Below are positions 16,299 to 58,718 of a stretch of DNA of 64,000 nt, piece after piece. This DNA is from Candidatus Amarolinea dominans (GTDB lineage: Bacteria; Chloroflexota; Anaerolineae; SSC4; Amarolineaceae): the NCBI GenBank assembly GCA_016719785.1, contig JADJYJ010000010.1, forward strand, positions 1 through 64,000. Reading direction: 5' to 3'. The translations under genes and the position numbers were made by a program. The first letter of the stretch is position 1; each line of letters starts with the position of its first letter. The notes beneath the pieces were generated by a model that saw nothing but the letters and a program-made list of their open reading frames with translations, ran no database searches and was not told the DNA's origin.

Positions 16299-16385
16299 CT
16301 ATGCTGCAAGCGGGCACGAATTGCGCCTGTTTCCGCCGGCAGAAGAGTGAAGTCTATTCCCACTTGCAGTATACCTCGCCTGTCC
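16299..16385. repeat. Palindromic MITE/REP-like element copy A (about 85 bp, ends TGCAAGCGGG...CC(G/A)CTTGCA)
   Basis: ctatgctgcaagcgggcacgaattgcgcc...gaagtctattcccacttgcagtatacc. A second copy lies at 58341-58417. Confidence 0.7.
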
Positions 16386-40100: not shown

Positions 40101-43100
40101 GCTTACGCACCTCCGTCAGCCGGCCAAACGTATCGTACGTATAGAGCGTGACCGCCTCGTTGGCGTCGGTCTCGCTCTGTATTTGTCCCACCAACCCGCT
40201 GCCCCCGCCGTCGCATTCATGCCGTAGCGCGATGGTCGTCGTCAGCGTCGCGCCGCCCAACTGACAGGCCTGCACCGTTACGCTCATCGCATAGGCATGA
40301 AACGTGCTGTCGAAGGCCGTCGTGACCACGCTGCCATTGGCCGCCGTCTCGCTCCAACGGTTGCCCCATTGGTCATAGCCGTAAGCCGTCGACCGCATCC
40401 AGTTCGCGTCACACCCCGTGCCGCCCTGTCCCGCCTGCCACACCTCTCTCACCTGCCCAGCCGTCGGCGCCTGGTTGTACGCCGCATAGCCGCTGTAGTT
40501 GTCGTAGATGGTGCGCGTCTGCCCCTGGCATGTCCCGCTTTCGCTCCCCGCGAACAGCTTCTCCTCCGCCACCCGATTGACGATGTAGGTCGTGCCGTCA
40601 TTGCGTGGGGAATAGACCCGCTTGATCGTTCGGTATGGTATCGTTGGCGCGGCCTCGCTGTATAGCCGGGTCAACAGCAGATTGCCATACGCCGCATCGT
40701 AGGTGTTGACGCTTTTGGTGTAACGCAGCGGCGGGTCCGTGCCGTTGGGGTCCACAACGTATTCGGTCTTGTCTTGCAGATAGACGAAGTGCATCCCGCC
40801 CGGCGTCCCCACGCTGGTCTCGTTCCAGGTCTGCAGCGAACGCGCCAGCAAGTTGTTGGTGACGCCCAAACCCGCACGCGTCTCTGTCTTGGACAGCTTG
40901 CCTTTCCAGCGGTGCTGATTGGTCGTGGTGTGGAACCACTGCTTCAGCCGCGTGTCCGGCTGACCGCTGCCGATCAAGGCGCCGCTCCCTACCAGCGTCA
41001 TTTCCGCTTCGGCAAAGCCCCCCGCCTCGTTGTCCCAGGTCGTCGTGTACCAGTAGCTCGTCACGATGTCCGGATCGCTCCCGCCCCCACGCCGCCGCTC
41101 CTGCTGCACCACCATTCCGCCGCTCGAACCGCCGTACGTAACCTCCACCCGTCCCTGGTAGCCGTTGTTCACCGTCACCATGTGCCCATCCGTCGTGCCG
41201 CTCCCGTAGGTGTAGCTGGTTGGCGGCAGCGCATTGCTGCCGGTCCCATAGTGCGTGATCGTACTCAAGTACAGCCGGCTCTGCGACGGCGCCGCCGGGT
41301 TGATGAACGCCGTCATGCCCAACACCAGTTTGTGCAGCAGCGTATTGTTGGCCATCACCTCCACCCGCTGCAGGTACTTTCGTGTCCAGAAAACCTGGTA
41401 GCCGGTCTCGTCGAAGTGCTGAGCCCGGTCCTCCCGGTTCAGATAGAATAGCTTCAGCTTGAAGGCGCCGTTTGGCCCATAGCTGATCTCCTTCACCCGC
41501 ACCGCACGCACCTGGATGCGCGCATCGGCCGTGTAGTCGCGGTTCCAACAGTCTGCCGGCACATTCACCGCCAACAACGAACCCTCATAGTCATAGCTGA
41601 ACGTCAGACGATTAGGCGTCGTTGGCGTGGTGTCGCGCACCTCGGTCAACACCCACTTGGTGAAGCGATGCACCACCCGCAGTTCCGAAGGCGTCCAGTC
41701 TCCATTGCTGCAATCGCGCACATACAGCGCCGGCTCGAAGTGATAGGTAATGCCGCCCTCGGTCGTCACCTCCCACACCAGGTTGTCCCGGTTGTACAGC
41801 GCCGGCGTCTGGGGCAGATCAATCGTCTTGAAGGGCGTCGGCGTACTGGGGTCAAAACTTCCATCGACTGGATAGTCAGGGTTGGAAGCGGTGGGCCGGC
41901 GAATCTTCAGGAAGGGGTCCTGCACGCTGTAGAAAATCTCGCCGTGTTTCTCCAATTCATGGGTCACGCCGTTCAGGGTCAGGTGTACTTTCCCATGCCG
42001 TCTGGAGTCAAATCGTGCAGGATGTAGCTCAACCCACCGATGTCCCAGCCCCACCCGGCCAGTTGATGATGACCGGCGCCGGCCAGGCTGCGGCTGCTAT
42101 AGTCCAGGCTTAGCCCAGGCGCCAGTCCGCCCGGCCCCGGCGGCGCTGCGATCGGGTAGCTCACGGTCCAGGCCCCGTTGTACAACTGCGACTGCACCCC
42201 TTCGATCCCCGGCGCAGGCTCTGGCACAATGGCGTTGCCTTGCGCAAACAGCGTCAAATGGGTCAGGGTGGTGATCAGCCGCCTTTGCTCCTGATCCATG
42301 CTCGTTGGCAAGACCACCCAACGCCCGTCGGCCGCATCCTGGAAGAACAGCGAAGCGCCCGGTGGCCAGGGCGTTTGCTCATCGCCAGCCGCCGGATCGC
42401 GATAGCGCAGCGTCAACCCCACCGCAAACTGTGTCACCGGCAGTCCCGACATCTCCGTGGCGCTCAACTCGAACAGGAAATCAAGGTTCGCCGGCTGATC
42501 GGGATCGCTCTCGTGCGGGTGTAGCGCACCAGGGTCGGTGCGCTGACCGTACCAGCCGGAATCGTGAGCACCACCCGCCCATCGCTGCTCTGCAACCGGC
42601 TCTCCTGATCAGGCATCACCCACACCTCATCCGGCCCCGGCCCCGGCGTCCAGGTGGCGTCGGCGTCGGCGTACACCCCTCATCATCCTGGCAGGGGTGA
42701 CGGTGCAGCCGTCGGCGTTGGCGTCGCCGTCGGCGTCCAGGTGGCGGTCGGCGTTGGCGTCACTCCTCATCCTCGGTGGCGTGGCCGTCGGCGTCGGTGT
42801 ACACTCCTCATCCTGGCAGGGCGGCGGCTCGGCCGTCGGCGTGGCGGTCGGCGGTTCGGCCGTGGGCGTCGGCGCGCAGTCCTCGCCCAGGCAGGGCGCC
42901 GCGGTGATCGTGATCGCAGCGCTGGCCGTCACCCCTGCGCCCACCTCCTCGCTCACGATGGCCGCGGTGTTGGTGATGACCTGCCCGCTGACCGCACCCA
43001 GCGCCTGCGCCTGGAACGTGCCGGTCAGCGTCGCGCCCGCGGCCAGTTGGCCGATGACCCACTCCAGCCGGCGCTCGGCCTCCAGGTAGCTGAAATCCCC

Positions 43101-50638: not shown

Positions 50639-53008
50639 CTACCGGTTGATGCTGTTGTAGCTGGCCAGCCACTGTCCACTCTTGAGCGTCTCCGCCACGG
50701 CTACCAGTGGTTGGTTAGACTGAATCCGTACCGAACCTGTCCAGTTGCCGCCCAAAGAAATCGTAGCACAATGGTTGCGGGTATTGCGGCTGAGCGATCT
50801 GCCCGCGACGATCGTCAAGTTCGACTCCTGGAACGTCAGCGTGCCGTTCTGGTCGTAGTAATAGATGTCCACGTCAGTGGCATTGCTGGTAGTTGGATTC
50901 TGGATGCGCAAGATGGAGTACTGATCCCACTGGTTTTCACTGGACGGGCAAGAAGTGTAGGCGGTGTTCTTCTGGTAGACACCCGGCAGGTAGGTGTTCG
51001 TGCTCGCCAGTCCGCTGTGAACGCCGGTATAGGCGCCAGCCACGTTGTTGTCCGGCCGGAGGGTGATCTGCGCTACTGCCAGCGGCTGATTGGACTCAAC
51101 AATGACAGCGCCTGCCCATGCGCCTCCCAGAACACTGTAGACGCTGGCCTCGACATTGCCACCCGTCTTGGTGTTGAAGCCTTTGGCCGCATTCGGTGTG
51201 ATGGTTTGACCGGAGATGGTCAGGTCTTCGTTGCCGGTAGCGGCATTGCGATAGCGCAGGGTCACGTTGGCATTGCTGCTGCCCAGGTTTTGCACGATGG
51301 TGATCGAGAAGCCCTGCCAGCTTCCTGCGTTGGGATTGCAGTCGGTGCAACGCCGCTCTATGGAAGGTGCAAAGACCGGCCGTGCGCCACCGCTGACGCC
51401 GTTGTAAGCCGCCACATACCAGCGCCAGTAGTTGGTCAGCACAGAAGTGATGAGCTGGCCGTTGGTCGAGGTAACCTTGACTGCTCCGGTCCAGTTGCAG
51501 CCGGCCAACGTTCCGCATTGAGTATTGTAGTAGTCCGTCTGCCTCAGATCCGGCACTGCACCGCCTGGATCACGCAAGTCGTAATTGCGAAAGCCGTTCG
51601 CTACCAGGGTGTCGGAGCGCGTGAAGTCGGTCACGCCGCCGCGGTTGATGTACGTGAGCTCCAGGCTGGCGGCCGCGGTGGTCGTGTTTTGCACCATGAA
51701 GCGGGAATACTGGACGAAAGGCACGCCGTGGGTGACCGGATCCGGGTAGTAGACGGCGTAAGGCAGGTACATCGCAGCGCTACCCGCGTCGAAAGCGCTG
51801 TAGGCGACTGCCGCGTTGCCATCCCCATAATCGCCGCCGCTATAGCGATTCTCCACGATCACGGCCTGGTCCTGGCTGGCCACCGCCAGGGTTGAGCCGC
51901 GACAAAAGGCGCAATAGTTGGAGAAACGCACCTCCCTGGTGCTGTTGAGCGCAATGAAGTCGGTATTCTGCCGGTGTACCCAGTCGTCAGCGAGCAAGCT
52001 GGTGTTGACTTGGGCTACCTTGGCCTGGCTGTTGTTGCGCACCAGGATGGTCGAGTTCCAGCCGTAGTAGTTGGATAGGATGTCCGGCAGATAGGCGGGA
52101 TACAGACCAATGAAGGTGGTCCGGCCCGCGACGAAGGTGTGGTTGCCCAGGTCTTCATAGAGGGTGTCGTTAGGATAGCGAGCATAGAGGTGGTAGGTCC
52201 CCGGCTGCACGTCGGTGGTACCAAAATTCTCCACCACCAAGTCGTCCGCATTGGCCCAGGTGTAGGCATAGGTCTGTGACCAACCATAGCTCCCCCAAGT
52301 GGCATTGGCAGGTTTTTGTATGCCATGAATTCGCAATCCGCCGACTGGGTTTCCATTGGCATCGGTCACTTTGCCTACTGCGTTCGCTGTTTGGGTCCCG
52401 CCGTTATTGAATGATTCAAGCCAGAGTTCAGGGTTCCGCGACCGGGCCTCTGAGTCGAGTGTGTTAGGCTCCAGCTGTCTGTCTGACTCAGGATGAACAA
52501 CAATCTGCTGGTGTAGGTGATTTCCCTGCGAGTAACTACCGGTGTCGTCCACTTCACCGATCTTGGTTTGGCCAGCGTATACGACGTTGCCCACCTGTAC
52601 TGGTACACTCCATTGTTTGAGATGAAGATACACGGAGTAGACGTAAGCCATCTGTTGCGATGTACGATCATAGTGTCGCTGATTGTGACGCACGAGCGCA
52701 AAATTGCCCCAAGCGGTGCTTCTGTCTCCATCCGGTCTATCTTCACGCAGTTGGACAACCGTACCGTCTGCGACAGCGTATACGCTGGTGCCGTTTGGGT
52801 AGGGAAAGTCGATGCCTTTATGCGTGCTTCCACCGGACTCCTCAGCATACAAATAATACTGGTTGATCTTTCCACCATTGTCAGTGATCGGGCGTCGAAT
52901 TTGGTATGCTGCGTAAATGTCACCAATAAGCGCTGCCATCAGTAACACCAGGAATGCAGCGATAAGTACACTTATTCTGAACTGCTTTTCTACGAGTGTG
53001 TTTGTCAT
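50639..53008 (-). CDS. Membrane-anchored M23/LytM-family metallopeptidase with large C-terminal domain of unknown function (copy 1)
   Basis: N-terminal TM, HKGIDFPYP...GNHLHQQI (HxxxD...HxH M23 motifs), then a 550-aa Asn/Thr/Tyr-rich beta domain. Confidence 0.8.
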   Translation of the reverse strand: MTNTLVEKQFRISVLIAAFLVLLMAALIGDIYAAYQIRRPITDNGGKINQYYLYAEESGGSTHKGIDFPYPNGTSVYAVADGTVVQLREDRPDGDRSTAWGNFALVRHNQRHYDRTSQQMAYVYSVYLHLKQWSVPVQVGNVVYAGQTKIGEVDDTGSYSQGNHLHQQIVVHPESDRQLEPNTLDSEARSRNPELWLESFNNGGTQTANAVGKVTDANGNPVGGLRIHGIQKPANATWGSYGWSQTYAYTWANADDLVVENFGTTDVQPGTYHLYARYPNDTLYEDLGNHTFVAGRTTFIGLYPAYLPDILSNYYGWNSTILVRNNSQAKVAQVNTSLLADDWVHRQNTDFIALNSTREVRFSNYCAFCRGSTLAVASQDQAVIVENRYSGGDYGDGNAAVAYSAFDAGSAAMYLPYAVYYPDPVTHGVPFVQYSRFMVQNTTTAAASLELTYINRGGVTDFTRSDTLVANGFRNYDLRDPGGAVPDLRQTDYYNTQCGTLAGCNWTGAVKVTSTNGQLITSVLTNYWRWYVAAYNGVSGGARPVFAPSIERRCTDCNPNAGSWQGFSITIVQNLGSSNANVTLRYRNAATGNEDLTISGQTITPNAAKGFNTKTGGNVEASVYSVLGGAWAGAVIVESNQPLAVAQITLRPDNNVAGAYTGVHSGLASTNTYLPGVYQKNTAYTSCPSSENQWDQYSILRIQNPTTSNATDVDIYYYDQNGTLTFQESNLTIVAGRSLSRNTRNHCATISLGGNWTGSVRIQSNQPLVAVAETLKSGQWLASYNSINR

Positions 53009-53020
53009 TGCTCTTGCCTC

Positions 53021-54403
53021 CTAATAGTCTAACGAAGAAAGAACGATGAAATCAGGCGTTGCTGAAAGCCCGGTTTGCACTCCAATGCTCAGCGAGAGAG
53101 TCCACACCCTCCTTAAATCAGTAACATAGATCAGTTGGGTGCCATCTGGAGACCAGGTCGCCAGCCATTCGTTGCTGGCGCTCGTAAAATTCGAGGTTAG
53201 ATGTTTCAGCTCGGTTCCTGTCCTATCGATAAGCCACAGGTCGGTAAGGGGTTGGGGCTCTTCATAATATCGAATTCCGGTAAATACAATCCAATTTCCA
53301 TCAGGAGACCAACGGGGAATCCCCGCGGTCACGTCAATGTCTCGCGTGAGTTGGGTTTGTCTGGATCCATCAGGGTTCATAATCCACAAGTTGTAAGGAT
53401 AATCAGGACCTGATCTCTCGCCTAACAGAGAGACATACAGAATCTTATCGCCATTAGGCGACCATTGTGGAAAGTACAGTTCCGGTGCCTGTGGTGACAC
53501 CAGCACAGGAACAGATCCTCCACCGTCTGCCTCAACGACCACCATCGTGGCAGACCGCCGAAAAACACTGTCCACCAAGACCAAACGCTGTCCACCGGGC
53601 GCCCAAGCGAAATTGACGGCTTTATGTTCATTTTCTCGATCAACCGGATAAATCTCGCCTCGATCCCCGGTCGCCACATCCACAATCCACAAGCCCTGAG
53701 TCCGAGTACTGTGATAGGCGATGCGCGCGCCGCCAGGAGACCAAACCGGTTCGATTCCACCCTGCACCAGCTGCCGCAAGATCCCCATTCGAAGATCGAA
53801 TAGATAGATGCTATATTCGGGTGCTTCACCTTTACTTAAGGATGTCCGACTTTCTACGTTGCTCAATACTAAGGCAAGTTGAGTTCCATCTGGTGACGGA
53901 TTGGCCCATGTGTCAACACCCATATCTTGGCTGGCTAAAAAGAGTGGCACTTGGGCGTGAACATCTATTAGCACGCGCTCGCTCGTACCATCATTGCGGA
54001 TAGCGCGAATAAGATTACCGGTACGAAAAGCAATCGTATACGATGCGGTCTGTCCCGGTGGCAGCGGAATGATGGGCGGTACCGCGGTGGGGATGCGGGT
54101 CACCACCGGCGTGGGCAGCCGCGTGGGCACAGGCGGAATGGTGGGCGTCGGTCGCCGGGTCGGTGGGGGCGGCTCGATCCACAGCGTGGGGACAGGCGTC
54201 GGTGTCTGGATAGGAGACTGGAATAGTGATACGATAGGTCCCGTTGTGCTGCTTGGCATCGCCTGCGGCTGCGCGACTTCAGTCAGCGGCTCTGGCGTGA
54301 CACTTGGCGGCCACCCGGGCCCGCAACTGGCTAACACAACCAGCAGACCGGCCAACAGCAGCGCCCCCAGTGCGATAGTCAATCTCATGTGCAACCCATT
54401 CAT
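53021..54403 (-). CDS. TolB-like WD40/PD40 beta-propeller lipoprotein with Pro/Thr-rich N-terminal linker (copy 1)
   Basis: LVVLASCG lipobox, PTPT linker, repeated WSPDG...I.F/Y blades (PD40 repeats). Confidence 0.75.
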   Translation of the reverse strand: MNGLHMRLTIALGALLLAGLLVVLASCGPGWPPSVTPEPLTEVAQPQAMPSSTTGPIVSLFQSPIQTPTPVPTLWIEPPPPTRRPTPTIPPVPTRLPTPVVTRIPTAVPPIIPLPPGQTASYTIAFRTGNLIRAIRNDGTSERVLIDVHAQVPLFLASQDMGVDTWANPSPDGTQLALVLSNVESRTSLSKGEAPEYSIYLFDLRMGILRQLVQGGIEPVWSPGGARIAYHSTRTQGLWIVDVATGDRGEIYPVDRENEHKAVNFAWAPGGQRLVLVDSVFRRSATMVVVEADGGGSVPVLVSPQAPELYFPQWSPNGDKILYVSLLGERSGPDYPYNLWIMNPDGSRQTQLTRDIDVTAGIPRWSPDGNWIVFTGIRYYEEPQPLTDLWLIDRTGTELKHLTSNFTSASNEWLATWSPDGTQLIYVTDLRRVWTLSLSIGVQTGLSATPDFIVLSSLDY

Positions 54404-54608
54404 GGCTTGTCCTCCTCAGGTCAGAGTGTCGCAAATCAATCGGTCGCCCAACCGGGCGGTTATGATGGGCGGCAGTTCCATCACACCCTAAAGTATAGCA
54501 CGGAGGTGGCTACAAACTGGCTACAAATGGGTGTTTTTAGGGGAAAAAATCAACGAGTTTTGGAGCAGTTTGGCGCCATGTCAAGGCTCGATGTGACGCG
54601 GCCGTTGC

Positions 54609-54637
54609 TTGACACTCATAAACATTTCGTTTATGAT
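54609..54637 (+). promoter_or_regulatory. Consensus sigma70-type promoter of higBA (TTGACA-17-TATGAT), giving a near-leaderless transcript
   Basis: cttgacactcataaacatttcgtttatgatat, with the -10 about 8 nt upstream of the GTG at 54645. Confidence 0.55.
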
Positions 54638-54644
54638 ATATCTT

Positions 54645-54926
54645 GTGATTCAATCATTCGCTGATGACGAAACGGAATACTTCTACACCACCGGCAGGTC
54701 ACGCCGTCTCCCAACCGAGATTCGCGCTCGTGCAGCGATGCGGCTCACACAACTGAATGCATCCACGCGCATCGAGGATCTACACCTACCACCGTCGAAC
54801 CGCTTAGAGGCACTGAGGCATGACCGCAGCGGACAGTGGAGCATCCGCATCAATGACCAGTGGCGGGTCTGTTTTCGTTTCGAGAATGGCGACGCTATTG
54901 ACGTCGAAATCGTTGATTATCACTGA
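54645..54926 (+). CDS. higB: HigB-type toxin (RelE/ParE superfamily, killer protein)
   Basis: (M)IQSFADDETEYFYTTGRSRRLPTEIRARAAMRLTQLNASTRIEDLHLPPSNRLEALRHDRSGQWSIRINDQWRVCFRFENGDAIDVEIVDYH matches the HigB consensus closely. Start assigned to GTG. Confidence 0.8.
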   Translation: MIQSFADDETEYFYTTGRSRRLPTEIRARAAMRLTQLNASTRIEDLHLPPSNRLEALRHDRSGQWSIRINDQWRVCFRFENGDAIDVEIVDYH

Positions 54927-54938
54927 GAAGAGGTTGTT

Positions 54939-55298
54939 ATGATCAGTAGTGGTTTGCCGCCCATTCACCCCGGCGAGTTTCTGCTTGAGATACTGCATGA
55001 ACTTGGCATTTCACAGGCACAGTTTGCGCGCGCCATTGGCGTATCGCCTATGCGCGTGTCGTATGTCGTCAATCGCACACGCCCGGTGACGGCGGAACTT
55101 GCACTGCTTTTCGGTCGCGCACTGGACCAATCGCCGCAATACTGGCTCAATCTACAAGCGGCTTACGACCTGAAGACTGCTGAGATAGCTATCGGCCAGC
55201 AGTTGCTGACCGTTGCCCAGTTGGCGCCTGCTAGACAGGCCAATACACCTGTTGGCTTGCGCGAAGGCCGTTCGCCAGCAGGGTGTCGGTGCGCGTGA
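54939..55298 (+). CDS. higA: HigA-type antitoxin (HTH_XRE)
   Basis: IHPGEFLLEILHELGISQAQFARAIGVSPMRVSYVVNRTRPVTAELALLFGRALDQSPQYWLNLQAAYDL. The ORF tail reads antisense through the truncated M23 copy, so the true C-terminus is probably near 55240. Confidence 0.8.
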   Translation: MISSGLPPIHPGEFLLEILHELGISQAQFARAIGVSPMRVSYVVNRTRPVTAELALLFGRALDQSPQYWLNLQAAYDLKTAEIAIGQQLLTVAQLAPARQANTPVGLREGRSPAGCRCA

Positions 55299-56697
55299 AG
55301 TCGGTCACACCGCCGCGGTTGATGTACGTGAGCTGCAGGCTGGCGGCTGCGGTGGTGGCGTTTTGCACCGTGAAGCGGGAATACTGGACGAAAGGCACGC
55401 CGCCGGTGACCGCATCCGGGTAGTAGACGGCATAGGGTAGGTACATCGCGGCGCTACCCGCGTCGAAAGCACTGTACGCAACCGCCGCGCTGCCATCCCC
55501 ATAATCGCCGCCGCTATAGCGATTCTCCACGATCACGGCCTGGTCCTGGCTGCTCACCGCCAGGCTGGAGCCCCGACAATAGAAGCAATAGTTGGAGAAG
55601 CGCACCTCCCTGGTGCCGTTGAGCGCAATGAAGTCGGTATTCTGTCGGTCTACCCCGTACTCATCGTCGGCGAGCAAGCTGGTGTTGACCTGGGCTACCT
55701 TCACCTGGCTGTTGTTGCGCACCAGGATGGTCGAGTTCCAGCCGTAGTAGTTGGATAGAACGTCCGGCAGATAAGCGGGATACAGTCCGATGAAGGTGGT
55801 TCGACCCGCCACAAAGGTGTGGTTGCCCAGGTCTTCATACAGGGCGCCGTTGGGATAGCGCGCATAGAGATGGTAGGTACCCGGTTGAACATCCGTAGTG
55901 CCAAAATTCTCCACAAGCAGGTCGTCCGCATTGGCCCAGGCGTAGGCATAGGTCTGTGCTGTCAGGAAATTGTGCGCCGGGTCCCCTTCCGCTGCCAGGG
56001 GCTTCTCCATTCCCCAGATCAGCTTGCCGCCAACAGGATTACCGTTGACATCGGTGAGTTTGCCTATCGCGCTGGTCGTCTGAACACCGCTATTATTGAA
56101 CGCTTCCAACCACAGCTCAGGATTGCGCGAGGTGTTTTGCGACCACTCCCAATCCTCTGGGTCAGTACGGTTGAGATCCGTGGAAAGATTGACCTGCAGG
56201 TGAAGATGAGAAAGGGTGCTATTACCCGTGCTATTGGACTGGGCAATTACCTGTCCGGCACTGACAGTATCATCAACATTGACGCTTATGCTGTTATACT
56301 TCAGATGCGCGTAGATTGAGTACACATAGGCCATTTGACCCACTGCACGATCGTAGTGCATTCGAGCATGCCGTATCATCACGTAGTTGCCAAATGCACC
56401 CTCTGTGTTTTGATTGTCACGCACATCCTCGTTAACGGCCATTACTCTTCCATCATCGGTAGACCGAACATTGGTACCTGTTCCATGCCGGAAGTCTACA
56501 CCTCTATGAACTTGGCCACCAGATTCTTCTCCATACAAGTAGACTTGATTGACGATGCCACCGTTATCAGTGATGGGCCTTCGGATAGAATAGGCAGCAT
56601 ATACGGTTATGACCATAAGAGCCGCAGTAACAGCAAGAATAAGCAAGCCATAGATGACGTAATGTCGTGGGTGAGAATGCTTGATCATAAGAATCAC
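55231..56697 (-). CDS. M23/LytM-family metallopeptidase paralog (copy 2), truncated at the 3' end by the higBA insertion
   Basis: Close to copy 1 through ...TRTDTLLANG, then 11 unrelated codons and a stop inside the higA region. It lacks the last about 300 aa of copy 1. Confidence 0.7.
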   Translation of the reverse strand: MILMIKHSHPRHYVIYGLLILAVTAALMVITVYAAYSIRRPITDNGGIVNQVYLYGEESGGQVHRGVDFRHGTGTNVRSTDDGRVMAVNEDVRDNQNTEGAFGNYVMIRHARMHYDRAVGQMAYVYSIYAHLKYNSISVNVDDTVSAGQVIAQSNSTGNSTLSHLHLQVNLSTDLNRTDPEDWEWSQNTSRNPELWLEAFNNSGVQTTSAIGKLTDVNGNPVGGKLIWGMEKPLAAEGDPAHNFLTAQTYAYAWANADDLLVENFGTTDVQPGTYHLYARYPNGALYEDLGNHTFVAGRTTFIGLYPAYLPDVLSNYYGWNSTILVRNNSQVKVAQVNTSLLADDEYGVDRQNTDFIALNGTREVRFSNYCFYCRGSSLAVSSQDQAVIVENRYSGGDYGDGSAAVAYSAFDAGSAAMYLPYAVYYPDAVTGGVPFVQYSRFTVQNATTAAASLQLTYINRGGVTDFTRTDTLLANGLRASQQVYWPV

Positions 56698-56768
56698 CTC
56701 TTGAATGAGAGCCTTGCATTGTCAGTGACTTCCACACAGGTTCTGATTGTGCGCCGATGAGTCGAAAT

Positions 56769-58142
56769 CTATCGCAAGAGAAGAAACGATACGACATCGT
56801 GATCCCAGGCTTGCCTGAGTGAACCGTCTCTGAGGGTCACATCCCAAATCCCGTCGCCTTCCCTGTAGAATACTATCCGCTGCCCATCCGGTGTCCAGAC
56901 TGGGTTCAGGTCAGTAGCAGGGTCATTATTCAGGCGTGCGAGTGCATTCCCATCATTGCTAATCAGCCAAAGGTCATATTGATAGGGTTCGCCTTCCAAT
57001 AGATTCGTTCCTGCAAAAGCAATCCAATTGCCATCCGGCGACCAGACTGGTGCGCCGCCGCCAGCGCTCATGTTTCGAGTCAACTGCCGCTGTACTCCGG
57101 TGTCTGCTTCGACAATCCAAATGCTAAGCGGTCGTCCGGGAGTTAGTCGTTCACCTTTCCTTGATCGGAACAAAACGTCCTTACCAGTAGGAGACCACTC
57201 GAGACCCAAGGCGTTCATCTCCATTGAAACTACTTGACGAGACTCGCCGCCATTGCCCACATTGACGATCCAAATACCCCCTACATTGGCGACACCGCCC
57301 CAGTTCTTCACCACGGCGATTCTCTGCGCATCGGGTGACCATGTGAACCAATCGGCCTGATGCTCGGTTTCGGGATAGCCTACAGCGAACAGTTCTTGAG
57401 TGTCCCCTGTGGCCACATCTACCACCCACAACCCCTGGGTTCGGGTGCTGCGATAGGCAATGCGAGCACCATCCGGTGACCACACCGGCTTGACGCCGTC
57501 TTCCACCAGCAATCGCAGGTCCCTGGTCGCCGGATCGAGGAGATAGATGGCGAATTCAACCTGTTTCCCCCTCGGTAACGTATCGAGGTTCTCGAAATCG
57601 CTTGCCACCAGCGCCAGTCGGCTGCCATCGGGCGCAGGACTGGCCCAGGTGCCCACCAGGAAGCTGCGGTCAACCAGAAAGCGCGATAATTGGGCAGGAA
57701 TGTCTATCACCACCCGGTCGTTGCGGCCGTCGCTGTCCACGGCTCGCACCACACTGCCCTCTCGATAGACGATGGTGTATGGTTCCGGCTCTCCCGGTGG
57801 CAGCGGAATGATGGGCGGCACCGCGGTAGGGATGCGGGTCACCACCGGCGTGGGCAGCCGCGTGGGCACAGGCGGAATGGTGGGCGTCGGTCGCCGGGTC
57901 GGTGGGGGCGGCTCGATCCACGGCGTGGGGATAGGCGTCGGCGTCTGGATAGGAGACTGGAATAGTGATACGATAGGTCCCGCTGTGCTGCTTGGCATCG
58001 CTTGCGGCTGCGCGACCTCAGTCAGCGGCTCTGGCGTGACACTTGGCGGCCACCCGGGCCCGCAACTGGCTAACACAACCAGCAGACCGGCCAACAGCAG
58101 CGCCCCCAGTGCGATAGTCAATCTCATGTGCAACCCATTCAT
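56769..58142 (-). CDS. TolB-like WD40/PD40 beta-propeller lipoprotein (copy 2)
   Basis: The first about 110 aa and the upstream 80 bp are identical to copy 1. The propeller is about 55% identical. Confidence 0.75.
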   Translation of the reverse strand: MNGLHMRLTIALGALLLAGLLVVLASCGPGWPPSVTPEPLTEVAQPQAMPSSTAGPIVSLFQSPIQTPTPIPTPWIEPPPPTRRPTPTIPPVPTRLPTPVVTRIPTAVPPIIPLPPGEPEPYTIVYREGSVVRAVDSDGRNDRVVIDIPAQLSRFLVDRSFLVGTWASPAPDGSRLALVASDFENLDTLPRGKQVEFAIYLLDPATRDLRLLVEDGVKPVWSPDGARIAYRSTRTQGLWVVDVATGDTQELFAVGYPETEHQADWFTWSPDAQRIAVVKNWGGVANVGGIWIVNVGNGGESRQVVSMEMNALGLEWSPTGKDVLFRSRKGERLTPGRPLSIWIVEADTGVQRQLTRNMSAGGGAPVWSPDGNWIAFAGTNLLEGEPYQYDLWLISNDGNALARLNNDPATDLNPVWTPDGQRIVFYREGDGIWDVTLRDGSLRQAWDHDVVSFLLLR

Positions 58143-58340
58143 GGCTTGTCCTCCTCAGATCAGAATGTCGCAAATCAATCGGTCGCCCAACCGGGCGGTT
58201 ATGATGGGCGGCAGTTCCATCATAACCTAACCCGGCCAAGCCGGGATCGAACAGGATGATCTCTGCCACGAATTTTCACGAATTGGCCCCTTTGCCTTCG
58301 TGAGCATGGTTCAGACGATCCAAGGTAATGCAACTGAATG

Positions 58341-58417
58341 CTATACTGCAAGCGGGAATAGACTTCGCTTTTCCGCCTAAGGAAAAAGGCGCAATTCGTG
58401 CCCGCTTGCAGTATATC
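58341..58417. repeat. Palindromic MITE/REP-like element copy B
   Basis: ctatactgcaagcgggaatagacttcgcttttccgcctaaggaaaaaggcgcaattcgtgcccgcttgcagtatatc. The ends and subterminal blocks match copy A at 16299-16385. Confidence 0.7.
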
Positions 58418-58718
58418 AGAAGTACAACTGCCAGGGGTAGATCATCCGATCCTCGGCGGGGCGCCCGTACAGCCCCACGACTCGATAATCCTCCACCTCA
58501 GCCACAGCATCACCGACGGCGGCGCCAGCAGCCTTCAGCAGGGGAGGTGTCCCATGCGGAAAAGTGAGCTTGGTCTCGATCAGTAGGGTGACTCCTGGCT
58601 GGCGCACGATAAAGTCAACCTCGCGCTTGTCGGTGGTCCGCCAGTAACCTACCTGCTGGCTGCCGTAGCGTTTGAGCAGTTCCGTGTAGACGCTGGTCTC
58701 GAAGACCGCTCCCACCAC
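58416..58718 (-). pseudogene. C-terminal remnant of a DUF4143-type (AAA-ATPase-associated) protein
   Basis: ...YWRTTDKREVDFIVRQPGVTLLIETK resembles the DUF4143 C-terminal domain. There is no N-terminal ATPase part. Confidence 0.4.

Follow-up and report, generated by a model that had tools for sequence, protein, structure and literature searches.

A higBA cassette between two probably old, partly recombined copies of a propeller lipoprotein–M23 peptidase operon in Candidatus Amarolinea dominans

The window analysed here, a stretch of 64,000 nt from Candidatus Amarolinea dominans (Chloroflexota; assembly GCA_016719785.1, contig JADJYJ010000010.1, positions 1 to 64,000), carries on its minus strand two tandem units, each made up of a gene for a PD40 beta-propeller lipoprotein followed by a gene for a membrane-anchored M23/LytM peptidase, with a higBA toxin-antitoxin (TA) module on the plus strand located exactly between the two. 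The positions of the two gene pairs agree between a preliminary description of this DNA and the list of open reading frames (ORFs), and the Pfam families Peptidase_M23 and PD40 were matched in both units. The genes of unit 1 (M23_1, Prop_1) and unit 2 (M23', Prop') are:

50639-53008, minus strand: M23_1, complete membrane-anchored M23/LytM peptidase of 789 aa
53021-54403, minus strand: Prop_1, lipoprotein of 460 aa (Pfam PD40, 51.9 bits)
55231-56697, minus strand: M23', truncated peptidase of 488 aa from a GTG start, or 485 aa from the ATG at 56688
56769-58142, minus strand: Prop', second propeller lipoprotein, 457 aa

Prop_1 begins with a signal peptide with the lipobox LASC, continues with a Pro/Thr-rich linker to about residue 117 and ends in a beta-propeller of the PD40/Tricorn_N type. 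The earlier name 'TolB-like' goes too far, as the protein reaches only 80.7 with the TolB model TIGR02800, whose cut-off is 343, and aligns with it in the propeller part only. Identity with TolB of the Tol-Pal system was likewise rejected, the neighbours being the M23 gene, higBA, an alpha-amylase-family gene and Liv-type ATP-binding cassette (ABC) transporter genes, not tolQRA/pal. The supported name is PD40 propeller lipoprotein. M23_1 comprises a transmembrane (TM) helix (residues 5-26), a LytM domain (about 40-200) with the catalytic motifs HxxxD (H63..D67) and HxH (H164, H166), a transthyretin-like domain (about 205-300) and, at the C-terminus, four homologous beta-sandwich repeats (R1, 303-420; R2, 432-553; R3, 564-680; R4, 692-789); its AlphaFold2 (AF2) model is confident, with a predicted local distance difference test score (pLDDT) of 88 and a predicted template modelling score (pTM) of 0.86. 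The HxxxD and HxH zinc/catalytic motifs are conserved in both M23 copies, which places both in the LytM fold, and M23' extends from the TM helix through a LytM domain with its full set of motifs and the transthyretin-like domain to R1 and about the first 40% of R2. A search of 50.0-59.5 kb against Rfam returned nothing credible, the sole match being to a snoRNA family with an E value of 0.22.

Comparison of the two units by blastn gives two collinear similar blocks, 51587-52278 with 55261-55958 (89.8%) and 53664-54491 with 57403-58230. The identity of the blocks was read from a global alignment in 60-nt windows and from block counts, and synonymous and non-synonymous divergence (dS, dN) was estimated according to Nei-Gojobori (NG86). 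Going down the minus strand, unit 1 and unit 2 compare as follows:

Beyond 54491 against beyond 58230, minus strand: upstream of the units, 42% identity (background)
54075-54491 against 57814-58230, minus strand: tract A, 95.7% identity, dS 0.05; 5' untranslated region (5'UTR) and Prop codons 1 to about 110
52290-54074 against 55959-57813, minus strand: core, 51.5% identity; propeller domain, TM helix and LytM catalytic domain
51587-52289 against 55261-55958, minus strand: tract C, 89.0% identity, dS 0.30; M23 residues about 246-474
Below 51587 against below 55261, minus strand: downstream, background identity

The heterogeneity of identity among these blocks is far above chance (Fisher p about 1e-76) and the block edges are sharp, with the number of matches per 60 nt dropping from 57-60 to 31-32 over some 60-90 nt. 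The variable core is unbroken and crosses the gene boundary, so as to include the 3' half of gene 1 together with the 5' third of gene 2; over its 1.8 kb the synonymous sites are saturated between unit 1 and unit 2 (proportion of synonymous differences, pS, 0.80-0.90), with a dN of 0.55. At the protein level, residues 1-117 of Prop' are about 97% identical to Prop_1, and the propeller domains that follow are synonymous-saturated with a dN of 0.55; the first 110 or so codons, previously called identical, are near-identical, with 8 differences in 329 coding nt. The same saturation and the same dN of 0.55 hold for the N-terminal 245 residues of M23, so that the earlier statement that the M23 genes are 70-100% identical in stretches does not describe them: only residues 246-474 are similar, at about 89% nucleotide identity. 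The GC content of the cores is about 46-57% (about 46-55% over 52400-53600 and 56000-57000), that of the conserved arms 59-66% and that of the neighbouring genes about 63-68%, which suggests horizontal circulation of the low-GC cores or a mutational regime of their own.

Among the homologues from other genomes, the two cores fall in with different sets. By domain-wise BLAST, the catalytic domain of M23_1 is 96% identical to that of its ortholog P0002, and the N-terminal catalytic domain of M23' is 65-66% identical to those of the full-length proteins P0003 and P0004, compared with 49% to M23_1. The relation is reversed in tract C, where M23_1 and M23' share 90% of their amino acids and M23_1 and its ortholog P0002 share 78%; paralogs closer to each other than to orthologs are a signature of gene conversion. 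An exact look-up of M23_1 itself gave no match, as the database copy differs by one residue and was reached through P0001, and a scan of contigs of GTDB representatives, among which the species is absent, gave a best match of 51% identity and no species-level synteny.

At 16 loci in other genomes, all metagenome-assembled genomes (MAGs) of Anaerolineae, Caldilineae and Promineifilum, the M23 gene is directly preceded by the propeller gene in every case, and at none of them is there a tandem second copy within 10 kb. Similarity to type 1 (the unit 1 version) or type 2 (the unit 2 version) co-varies between the propeller and the M23 N-domain across these loci (rho 0.71). In a seven-way nucleotide alignment the arms fall into two variants and the cores into at least two types, both arm variants being found with both core types (W1, L001, W2/L043, L044; L numbers denote contigs or loci), and the C-terminal half of the W2 propeller is of a third type. 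When the window is compared with L001, dS is 0.08 for the type-1 core and 0.38-0.42 for the flanking arms of the same genes.

Taken together, the cores are best read from their sequences as two old lineages, and the similar blocks as tracts of recombination or gene conversion of differing age. The claim of a duplication in progress does not stand against a saturated core of 51% identity, tracts with a dS of 0.05 and of 0.30, and cores nearer to the homologues of other genomes than to each other. A recent tandem duplication, with uniform divergence and copies that are mutual closest relatives, was rejected on the succession of dS 0.05, saturation and dS 0.30 along the units, and a young duplicate whose core has diverged by positive selection was set aside because of the saturated synonymous sites.

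The two units also differ at their 5' ends, where the following features were defined:

54404-54491, minus strand: 5'UTR of unit 1, shared with the unit 2 leader, 97.5% identity over 80 nt
54492-54527, minus strand: putative promoter of unit 1, of the SARP/AfsR type, with two direct repeats (DR1, DR2), an 8-bp spacer and the -10 hexamer TATACT
58143-58230, minus strand: copy of the 5'UTR in unit 2; the sequence beyond 58230 is unrelated to the unit 1 promoter

On the minus strand, the putative promoter reads DR1 TTTGTAGCCAG (54527-54517), DR2 TTTGTAGCCAC (54516-54506), spacer CTCCGTGC (54505-54498) and -10 TATACT (54497-54492), and conserved sequence upstream of it reaches to 54593. In promoters activated by Streptomyces antibiotic regulatory proteins (SARPs), the direct repeats lie 11 bp apart and the 3' repeat lies 8 bp from the -10 element (PMC10936776), a geometry that the unit 1 box, with its two 11-bp repeats and 8 bp to the -10, fits exactly. 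The box occurs once in the window, with 0 occurrences expected by chance, and is absent from unit 2; it is also found upstream of homologous units in L001, L043 and L044, and in L001, L089 and L094 such boxes are directly preceded by genes for large BTAD-AAA_16 (SARP-like STAND) regulators. Unit 1 is therefore likely to be driven by a putative activator-dependent promoter of the SARP/AfsR type. The promoter and 5' regions of the two units had been described as identical; only the 5'UTR is common to them, since strong identity begins at about 54478/58217 and weak similarity reaches no further than 54491/58230, downstream of the unit 1 -10 box at 54492-54497. Three other readings of these sequences were discarded, namely the 20-nt promoter repeat as the end of a mobile element (the fixed distance to the -10 and the adjacent BTAD regulators favour a promoter), a riboswitch or attenuator in the shared 5'UTR (which folds no better than shuffled sequence, z -0.88) and a terminator-like hairpin, CGGTTGGGCGACCG, present in both leaders (a count within chance expectation).

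The box was also followed outside these loci. In the form TTTGTAGCCAG-TTTGTAGCCA(C) it was found in 43 metagenome contigs (L056-L098), beside its occurrences in the window (54492-54527, minus strand) and in L001 (8510-8545 and 12466-12501); many of the 43 have about 8 bp between the box and a -10 of the type TGCTAnnCT, and AT-rich marine contigs with the 20-mer are possibly unrelated. Downstream of the box in L094 are encoded a small protein of 143 aa and a secreted, repeat-rich protein of 690 aa, beta-propeller-like by eye. From these contexts the box looks like the mark of a SARP-type regulon for envelope proteins in Chloroflexota. In L089 (1-2400 of a 652-kb contig) a regulator, the box, a 72-aa gene and a 476-aa gene follow in order, and in L001 (8444-12501) a propeller-M23 pair with a second copy of the box stands between the regulator and the 72-aa and 476-aa genes; compared with each other, the two orders indicate that the pair behaves like a cassette inserted at the promoter box. 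L052, on the same contig as L058, is 99.94% identical to the window over 59293-54489 and then switches inside the promoter box. Beyond the switch (L052 4806-6990) lies a different pair of genes. The first encodes a secreted protein of 267 aa that may contain a Cys/His hydrolase motif and is without a Pfam match; the second encodes a lipoprotein of 438 aa that has a Pro/Thr linker and propeller-like repeats. The 72-aa and 476-aa genes known from L001 come next. With a coverage of 2.3x and a join at a repeat, L052 may be either a real cassette replacement or a chimera.

At its 3' end, unit 2 is clearly incomplete. Homology of M23' is lost after ...TRTDTLLANGLR (residue 479), 479 residues out of the 789 of M23_1, to be followed by 10 foreign codons antisense to the higA end, which confirms the earlier observation that the M23 gene of copy 2 stops early and runs antisense into the 3' end of higA. 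Profile hidden Markov models (HMMs) of R1-R4 cross-match one another, and M23' yields R1 and only positions 2-44 of R2; a clean truncation at a domain boundary was excluded, as the cut lies about 40% into R2. The closest full-length relatives of M23', P0003 (791 aa) and P0004 (801 aa), run through three more repeat domains, and with such full-length type-2 genes at loci L042-L044 the truncation of M23' is evidently real. Short natural family members without R3-R4 also occur (L010, L014, L022), so that a protein composed of TM helix, LytM domain, transthyretin-like domain and R1 is within the natural range of the family. No full-length protein with the type-2 catalytic domain of the window was found in a collection of 5.8 billion proteins, in which the best full-length match is 74%.

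The 945 bp missing from M23' are not on the far side of higBA. The preliminary description had held that higBA removed the C-terminal 300 or so residues; the truncation is confirmed, but its cause is unproven, as a plain insertion deletes no 945 bp. A duplication junction that carries only an inserted element was rejected for the same absence of the displaced 945 bp beyond higBA and for the lack of a promoter in unit 2. The unit 2 fragment may rather have been created by rearrangement or deletion than by cassette insertion alone, since unit 2 is also cut at its 5' end, beside the remnant of a DUF4143 gene. Some deletion or other rearrangement is required. The 5' boundary of unit 2 is occupied by:

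58339-58418, strand not assigned: palindromic hairpin element, an inverted repeat (z -4.97)
58416-58718, minus strand: DUF4143 gene remnant, an ORF of 100 aa matching positions 106-159 of 160 of PF13635

The remnant appears to be a second rearrangement scar beside unit 2. The hairpin element of about 80 nt is intergenic, folds at -39.5 kcal/mol, carries TATACT-like motifs on both strands, has no match in Rfam and occurs a second time at 16304-16373 (88.6% identity over 70 nt). Unit 2 was also considered as a decaying pseudogene, a reading that was discarded because no assembly has either ORF disrupted and dN/dS stands at about 0.15; for M23' of the window compared with that of L041, dN/dS is 0.14-0.16 at a dS of 0.38.

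Between the two units, the higBA cassette is composed of the following:

54594-55260, plus strand: higBA cassette, with promoter, higB, higA and a 28-nt 3' flank
54609-54637, plus strand: higBA promoter, TTGACA-17-TATGAT, 11/12 consensus matches, conserved in five homologous cassettes
54645-54926, plus strand: higB toxin gene, 93 aa from GTG; HigB-like_toxin PF05015 over the whole model, 69.5 bits against a cut-off of 27
54939-55298, plus strand: higA antitoxin gene, 119 aa; HTH_3; NCBIfam HigA TIGR02607, 86.3 bits against a cut-off of 47.7

The order higB to higA, the 12-nt gap and the module's own promoter are those of HigBA modules, and HigA is 83-89% identical to many proteins annotated as such. 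The GTG start of higB is kept in the homologous cassettes and the same 93 aa are called in L050; longer calls, from 54609 (TTG) or 54633 (ATG), would begin inside the promoter. In the window and in all five homologous cassettes this GTG lies 7 nt past the -10 hexamer, and the mRNA may accordingly be leaderless or nearly so. The homology of the unit 1 upstream region to L001 stops at 54593 and M23 homology resumes at 55261, so that the cassette fills the gap exactly; an addiction module with its own promoter, TTGACA-17-TATGAT, located exactly at the junction was thus correctly recognised before, its edges abutting both neighbours. Homology to higBA cassettes in five other contexts extends over 54589/54610-55228 at about 83%, and HigA of identical sequence is found in five or more unrelated contexts (RadC, SSB, integrase, WYL, RNase H), from which we consider the cassette to be mobile.

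At the junction itself both reading frames have been altered. Native HigA corresponds to residues 1-98 (to 55232), in line with its homologues, which among the 120 closest matches listed are mostly of 98 aa and end in ...LAPA or ...LVPA. The stop codon is replaced by AGA (55233-55235), and a 21-codon extension spans the 28-nt flank and then antisense M23' DNA; GCT-AGA in place of GCT-TAG makes the loss of one base a plausible cause. Reciprocally, M23' takes its last 10 codons and its stop from the strand opposite the flank and higA codon 98, and the two genes overlap convergently by 68 nt. A literature search found nothing on this kind of higBA junction.

The same arrangement recurs elsewhere. 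L050 (GCA_016704685.1, a MAG contig of 240.8 kb) has the full layout at 99.74% identity over 13.2 kb, in the order Liv ABC genes, His_Phos_1, DUF4143 remnant, unit 2, higAB and unit 1. L051, L053, L054 and L079 reach into unit 1 from unit 2 and/or higBA, L004 and L005 lie on either side of the higBA junction with an overlap in higBA, and the junction is present in every assembly that covers the unit 2-higBA stretch. Its recurrence in separate assemblies, the 240.8-kb contig among them, speaks for a real layout. L041 (GCA_049291535.1) shows the same break and tail with an M23' that is only about 88% identical at the nucleotide level; relative to the window, it is 100% identical from the junction onward (55290-54293) and about 88% identical in M23' before the junction. 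As it is shared with a lineage whose M23' has diverged by about 12%, the junction is likely to be old and stable, which again speaks against an expansion in progress. Elsewhere in the window, a GC-rich region at 42708-42874 contains tandem repeats (periods 18, 40 and 27 nt; scores 66-117) and differs between the window and contig L003.

Overall, these results suggest a model, to which we assign a probability of about 0.72, in which two old, diverged operon copies have been partly overwritten by recombination and are separated by a mobile higBA, in a stable arrangement and not as a fresh duplication. A two-gene operon found repeatedly in MAGs of Anaerolineae and Caldilineae would have split long ago into two versions, type 1 and type 2, which would have come to lie side by side, unit 1 as a complete copy and unit 2 as a fragment that starts near the transcription start, without the SARP box, and ends inside R2, bounded by a gene remnant and the hairpin element on one side and by the mobile higBA cassette on the other. 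Blocks A and C would be products of concerted evolution, in which the units exchanged sequence by homologous recombination or gene conversion. The rearrangement that joined M23' to higBA would have occurred once, before the lineages of the window and of L041 parted, after which the broken frames would have run to the next stop, adding 10 foreign codons to M23' and, upon loss of its stop, 21 codons to higA. A crossover between the direct repeats, A1xA2 or C1xC2, would delete higBA, and HigB outliving HigA could then penalise collapse of the pair, whereas non-crossover conversion would stay allowed; such a penalty on deletion would explain both the persistent pair and the homogenised arms. That chromosomal TA modules stabilise DNA segments is an established concept (PMC7167474).

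Other explanations account for part of the same evidence. A recent tandem segmental duplication still under way, with insertion of higBA at the junction removing the 3' third of copy 2, would agree with tandem, collinear units with higBA exactly at their junction, with the near-identity of block A (dS 0.05) and with the lack of a tandem second copy within 10 kb at the 16 loci of other genomes. We regard it as very unlikely, given a synonymous-saturated core of 51% identity, cores closer to relatives in other genomes, a promoter that was not duplicated, 945 bp that insertion alone cannot delete, and a junction common to the lineage with an M23' diverged by about 12% and to every covering assembly. 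It is extremely improbable that the layout is an artefact of assembly, through a collapsed or expanded repeat or a chimeric join: although short-read contigs do tend to break in the repeated blocks or in higBA (L003, L004, L005, L051), the cores are too different for an expanded repeat, the full layout stands on the 240.8-kb contig L050, and the stretch from unit 2 through higBA into the beginning of unit 1 is spanned in L051, L053, L054, L041 and L079, which stem from different samples.

Unit 2 could also have arrived as a foreign type-2 operon fragment by horizontal transfer, perhaps together with higBA on a since decayed mobile element, upstream of unit 1, with homogenisation of the arms at a later time. 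This would be in keeping with the GC content of the unit 2 core (about 46-57%) and of higBA (about 52%) relative to the neighbours (about 63-68%), with the mobile-element-like contexts of the closest higBA relatives, with the truncated DUF4143 gene and repeated hairpin element that flank unit 2, and with the single unit in a different context in L001. The unit 1 core is, however, equally low in GC, the neighbourhood contains no integrase, transposase or att-like repeats, and the same gene conversion is needed for the arms, so that this unlikely course of events would differ from our preferred explanation only in the origin of the tandem state. Another proposal makes unit 2 a silent or 'orphan' cassette, a stored core that could be swapped through the arms into the expressed unit 1 and thereby change a polymorphic surface or an effector-immunity-like pair. 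A variable core between two conserved arms in a copy cut at both ends, yet with intact frames and a low dN/dS, a mosaic family in which both arm variants go with both core types, a type-1 core more conserved between lineages than its arms and a possibly different pair of hydrolase-like protein and propeller lipoprotein behind the same promoter in L052 are all compatible with it. Distinctly improbable it nonetheless appears to us: in the 5.8-billion-protein collection the type-2 catalytic domain of the window is present in truncated form only, with no full-length protein above 74%; the M23 N-terminus is a membrane anchor and not a secretion or toxin-delivery domain; L052, at 2.3x coverage and joined at a repeat, may be chimeric; and no recombinase or switching machinery was seen. 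A broader version, in our view quite unlikely, has a recombination-driven variable module in which the low-GC core would be a cognate polymorphic pair (for instance an enzyme and the protein that inhibits it or confers immunity, or a surface pair exposed to phages) that would be exchanged, both inside a genome and from one genome to another, through the arms and at SARP-box promoters, with unit 2 as a stored orphan cassette locked by higBA.

Several points weigh against our model of two old copies homogenised by recombination. The type-1 core seems to have moved recently between lineages, so that import between lineages has probably taken place as well, and a core exchanged for imported DNA by way of the conserved arms would leave a pattern no different from that of converted arms; for the conversion itself, the data yield neither a direction nor a date. 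The jump of identity at the junction of L041 indicates a recombination breakpoint between strains or a mixed-strain contig, and the low dN/dS of M23' could stem in part from divergence imported from functional alleles and not from selection in place. Toxicity of HigB, its neutralisation by HigA extended by the 21-residue tail and transcription of unit 2 are predictions, and no gene for a SARP regulator is found in the window. Judged from its domain content, the operon most likely acts on the cell envelope or in peptidoglycan remodelling, with the propeller lipoprotein as a partner; a literature search found nothing on this operon, no characterised member and nothing on the MAG accession.

Concerted evolution between tandem bacterial paralogs is familiar from tuf genes, rRNA operons and outer-membrane or pilin families. 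As in these, the present locus has sharp tracts of near-identity in old paralogs, paralogs closer than orthologs and tracts that differ in age; unlike in these, the tracts are the arms of a two-gene operon, one partner is a promoterless fragment and a TA cassette lies between the repeats. Near-identical starts of neighbouring genes hence need not mean a young duplication, and here appear as recombination tracts over old paralogs. The cassette resembles type II TA modules of the HigBA kind (RelE-superfamily toxin, HTH antitoxin) in passing the family models, in placing the toxin first, in its strong promoter of its own, in its small size and in its many contexts, but its HigA lacks the native stop and has a 21-residue tail from the flank and antisense M23' DNA, so that the locus offers a natural example of two genes that each gained a C-terminal tail from the antisense strand of the other after a rearrangement. 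Chromosomal TA modules can stabilise neighbouring DNA, as in the cassettes of the Vibrio superintegron and with mosAT of SXT (PMC7167474). Like these, the present cassette is situated where it could do so, between long direct repeats whose recombination would delete it; unlike in the Vibrio superintegron and SXT, the segment is a pair of paralogous operons, and its stabilisation is purely our inference. The locus may nevertheless serve as a natural example of a small TA cassette between long direct repeats that could penalise deletions and yet allow conversion.

LytM/M23 endopeptidases and LytM factors include LytM, lysostaphin, MepM/ShyA, DipM and EnvC. The enzymes described here differ from them in the N-terminal anchor, the transthyretin-like domain and the one to four beta-sandwich repeats, which resemble TM1070 and the Anabaena sensory rhodopsin transducer, and in that the gene is always paired with an upstream gene for a PD40 propeller lipoprotein; M23' moreover provides a natural example of a truncated enzyme gene with a signal of purifying selection. 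The putative unit 1 promoter is like the SARP/AfsR promoters of actinomycetes (afs box) in its two 11-bp direct repeats and 8 bp to the -10, and regulators with BTAD and a NOD-type ATPase adjoin it in related contigs. Unlike there, the host belongs to Chloroflexota, the putative targets are envelope proteins and not antibiotic clusters, and the window has no regulator gene. These features outline an operon of filamentous Chloroflexota from wastewater and digester samples, likely under SARP-type control, and provide leads for envelope biology in a poorly studied phylum.

Orphan or silent cassettes are known from CdiA-CT/CdiI and Rhs toxin-immunity systems and, for antigens, from pilS and vls. 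The present locus shares with them a promoterless, truncated copy that has its arms in common with a complete copy, and a contiguous variable part; it departs from them in that no swapped product and no delivery domain were found, and from CdiA-CT/CdiI and Rhs in that the variable part consists of an enzyme fold and a propeller fold in place of a toxin tip and a small immunity gene. The gene family and its likely SARP control are uncharacterised; the phenomenon itself is of known kinds, namely concerted evolution of paralogs combined with a mobile TA cassette.

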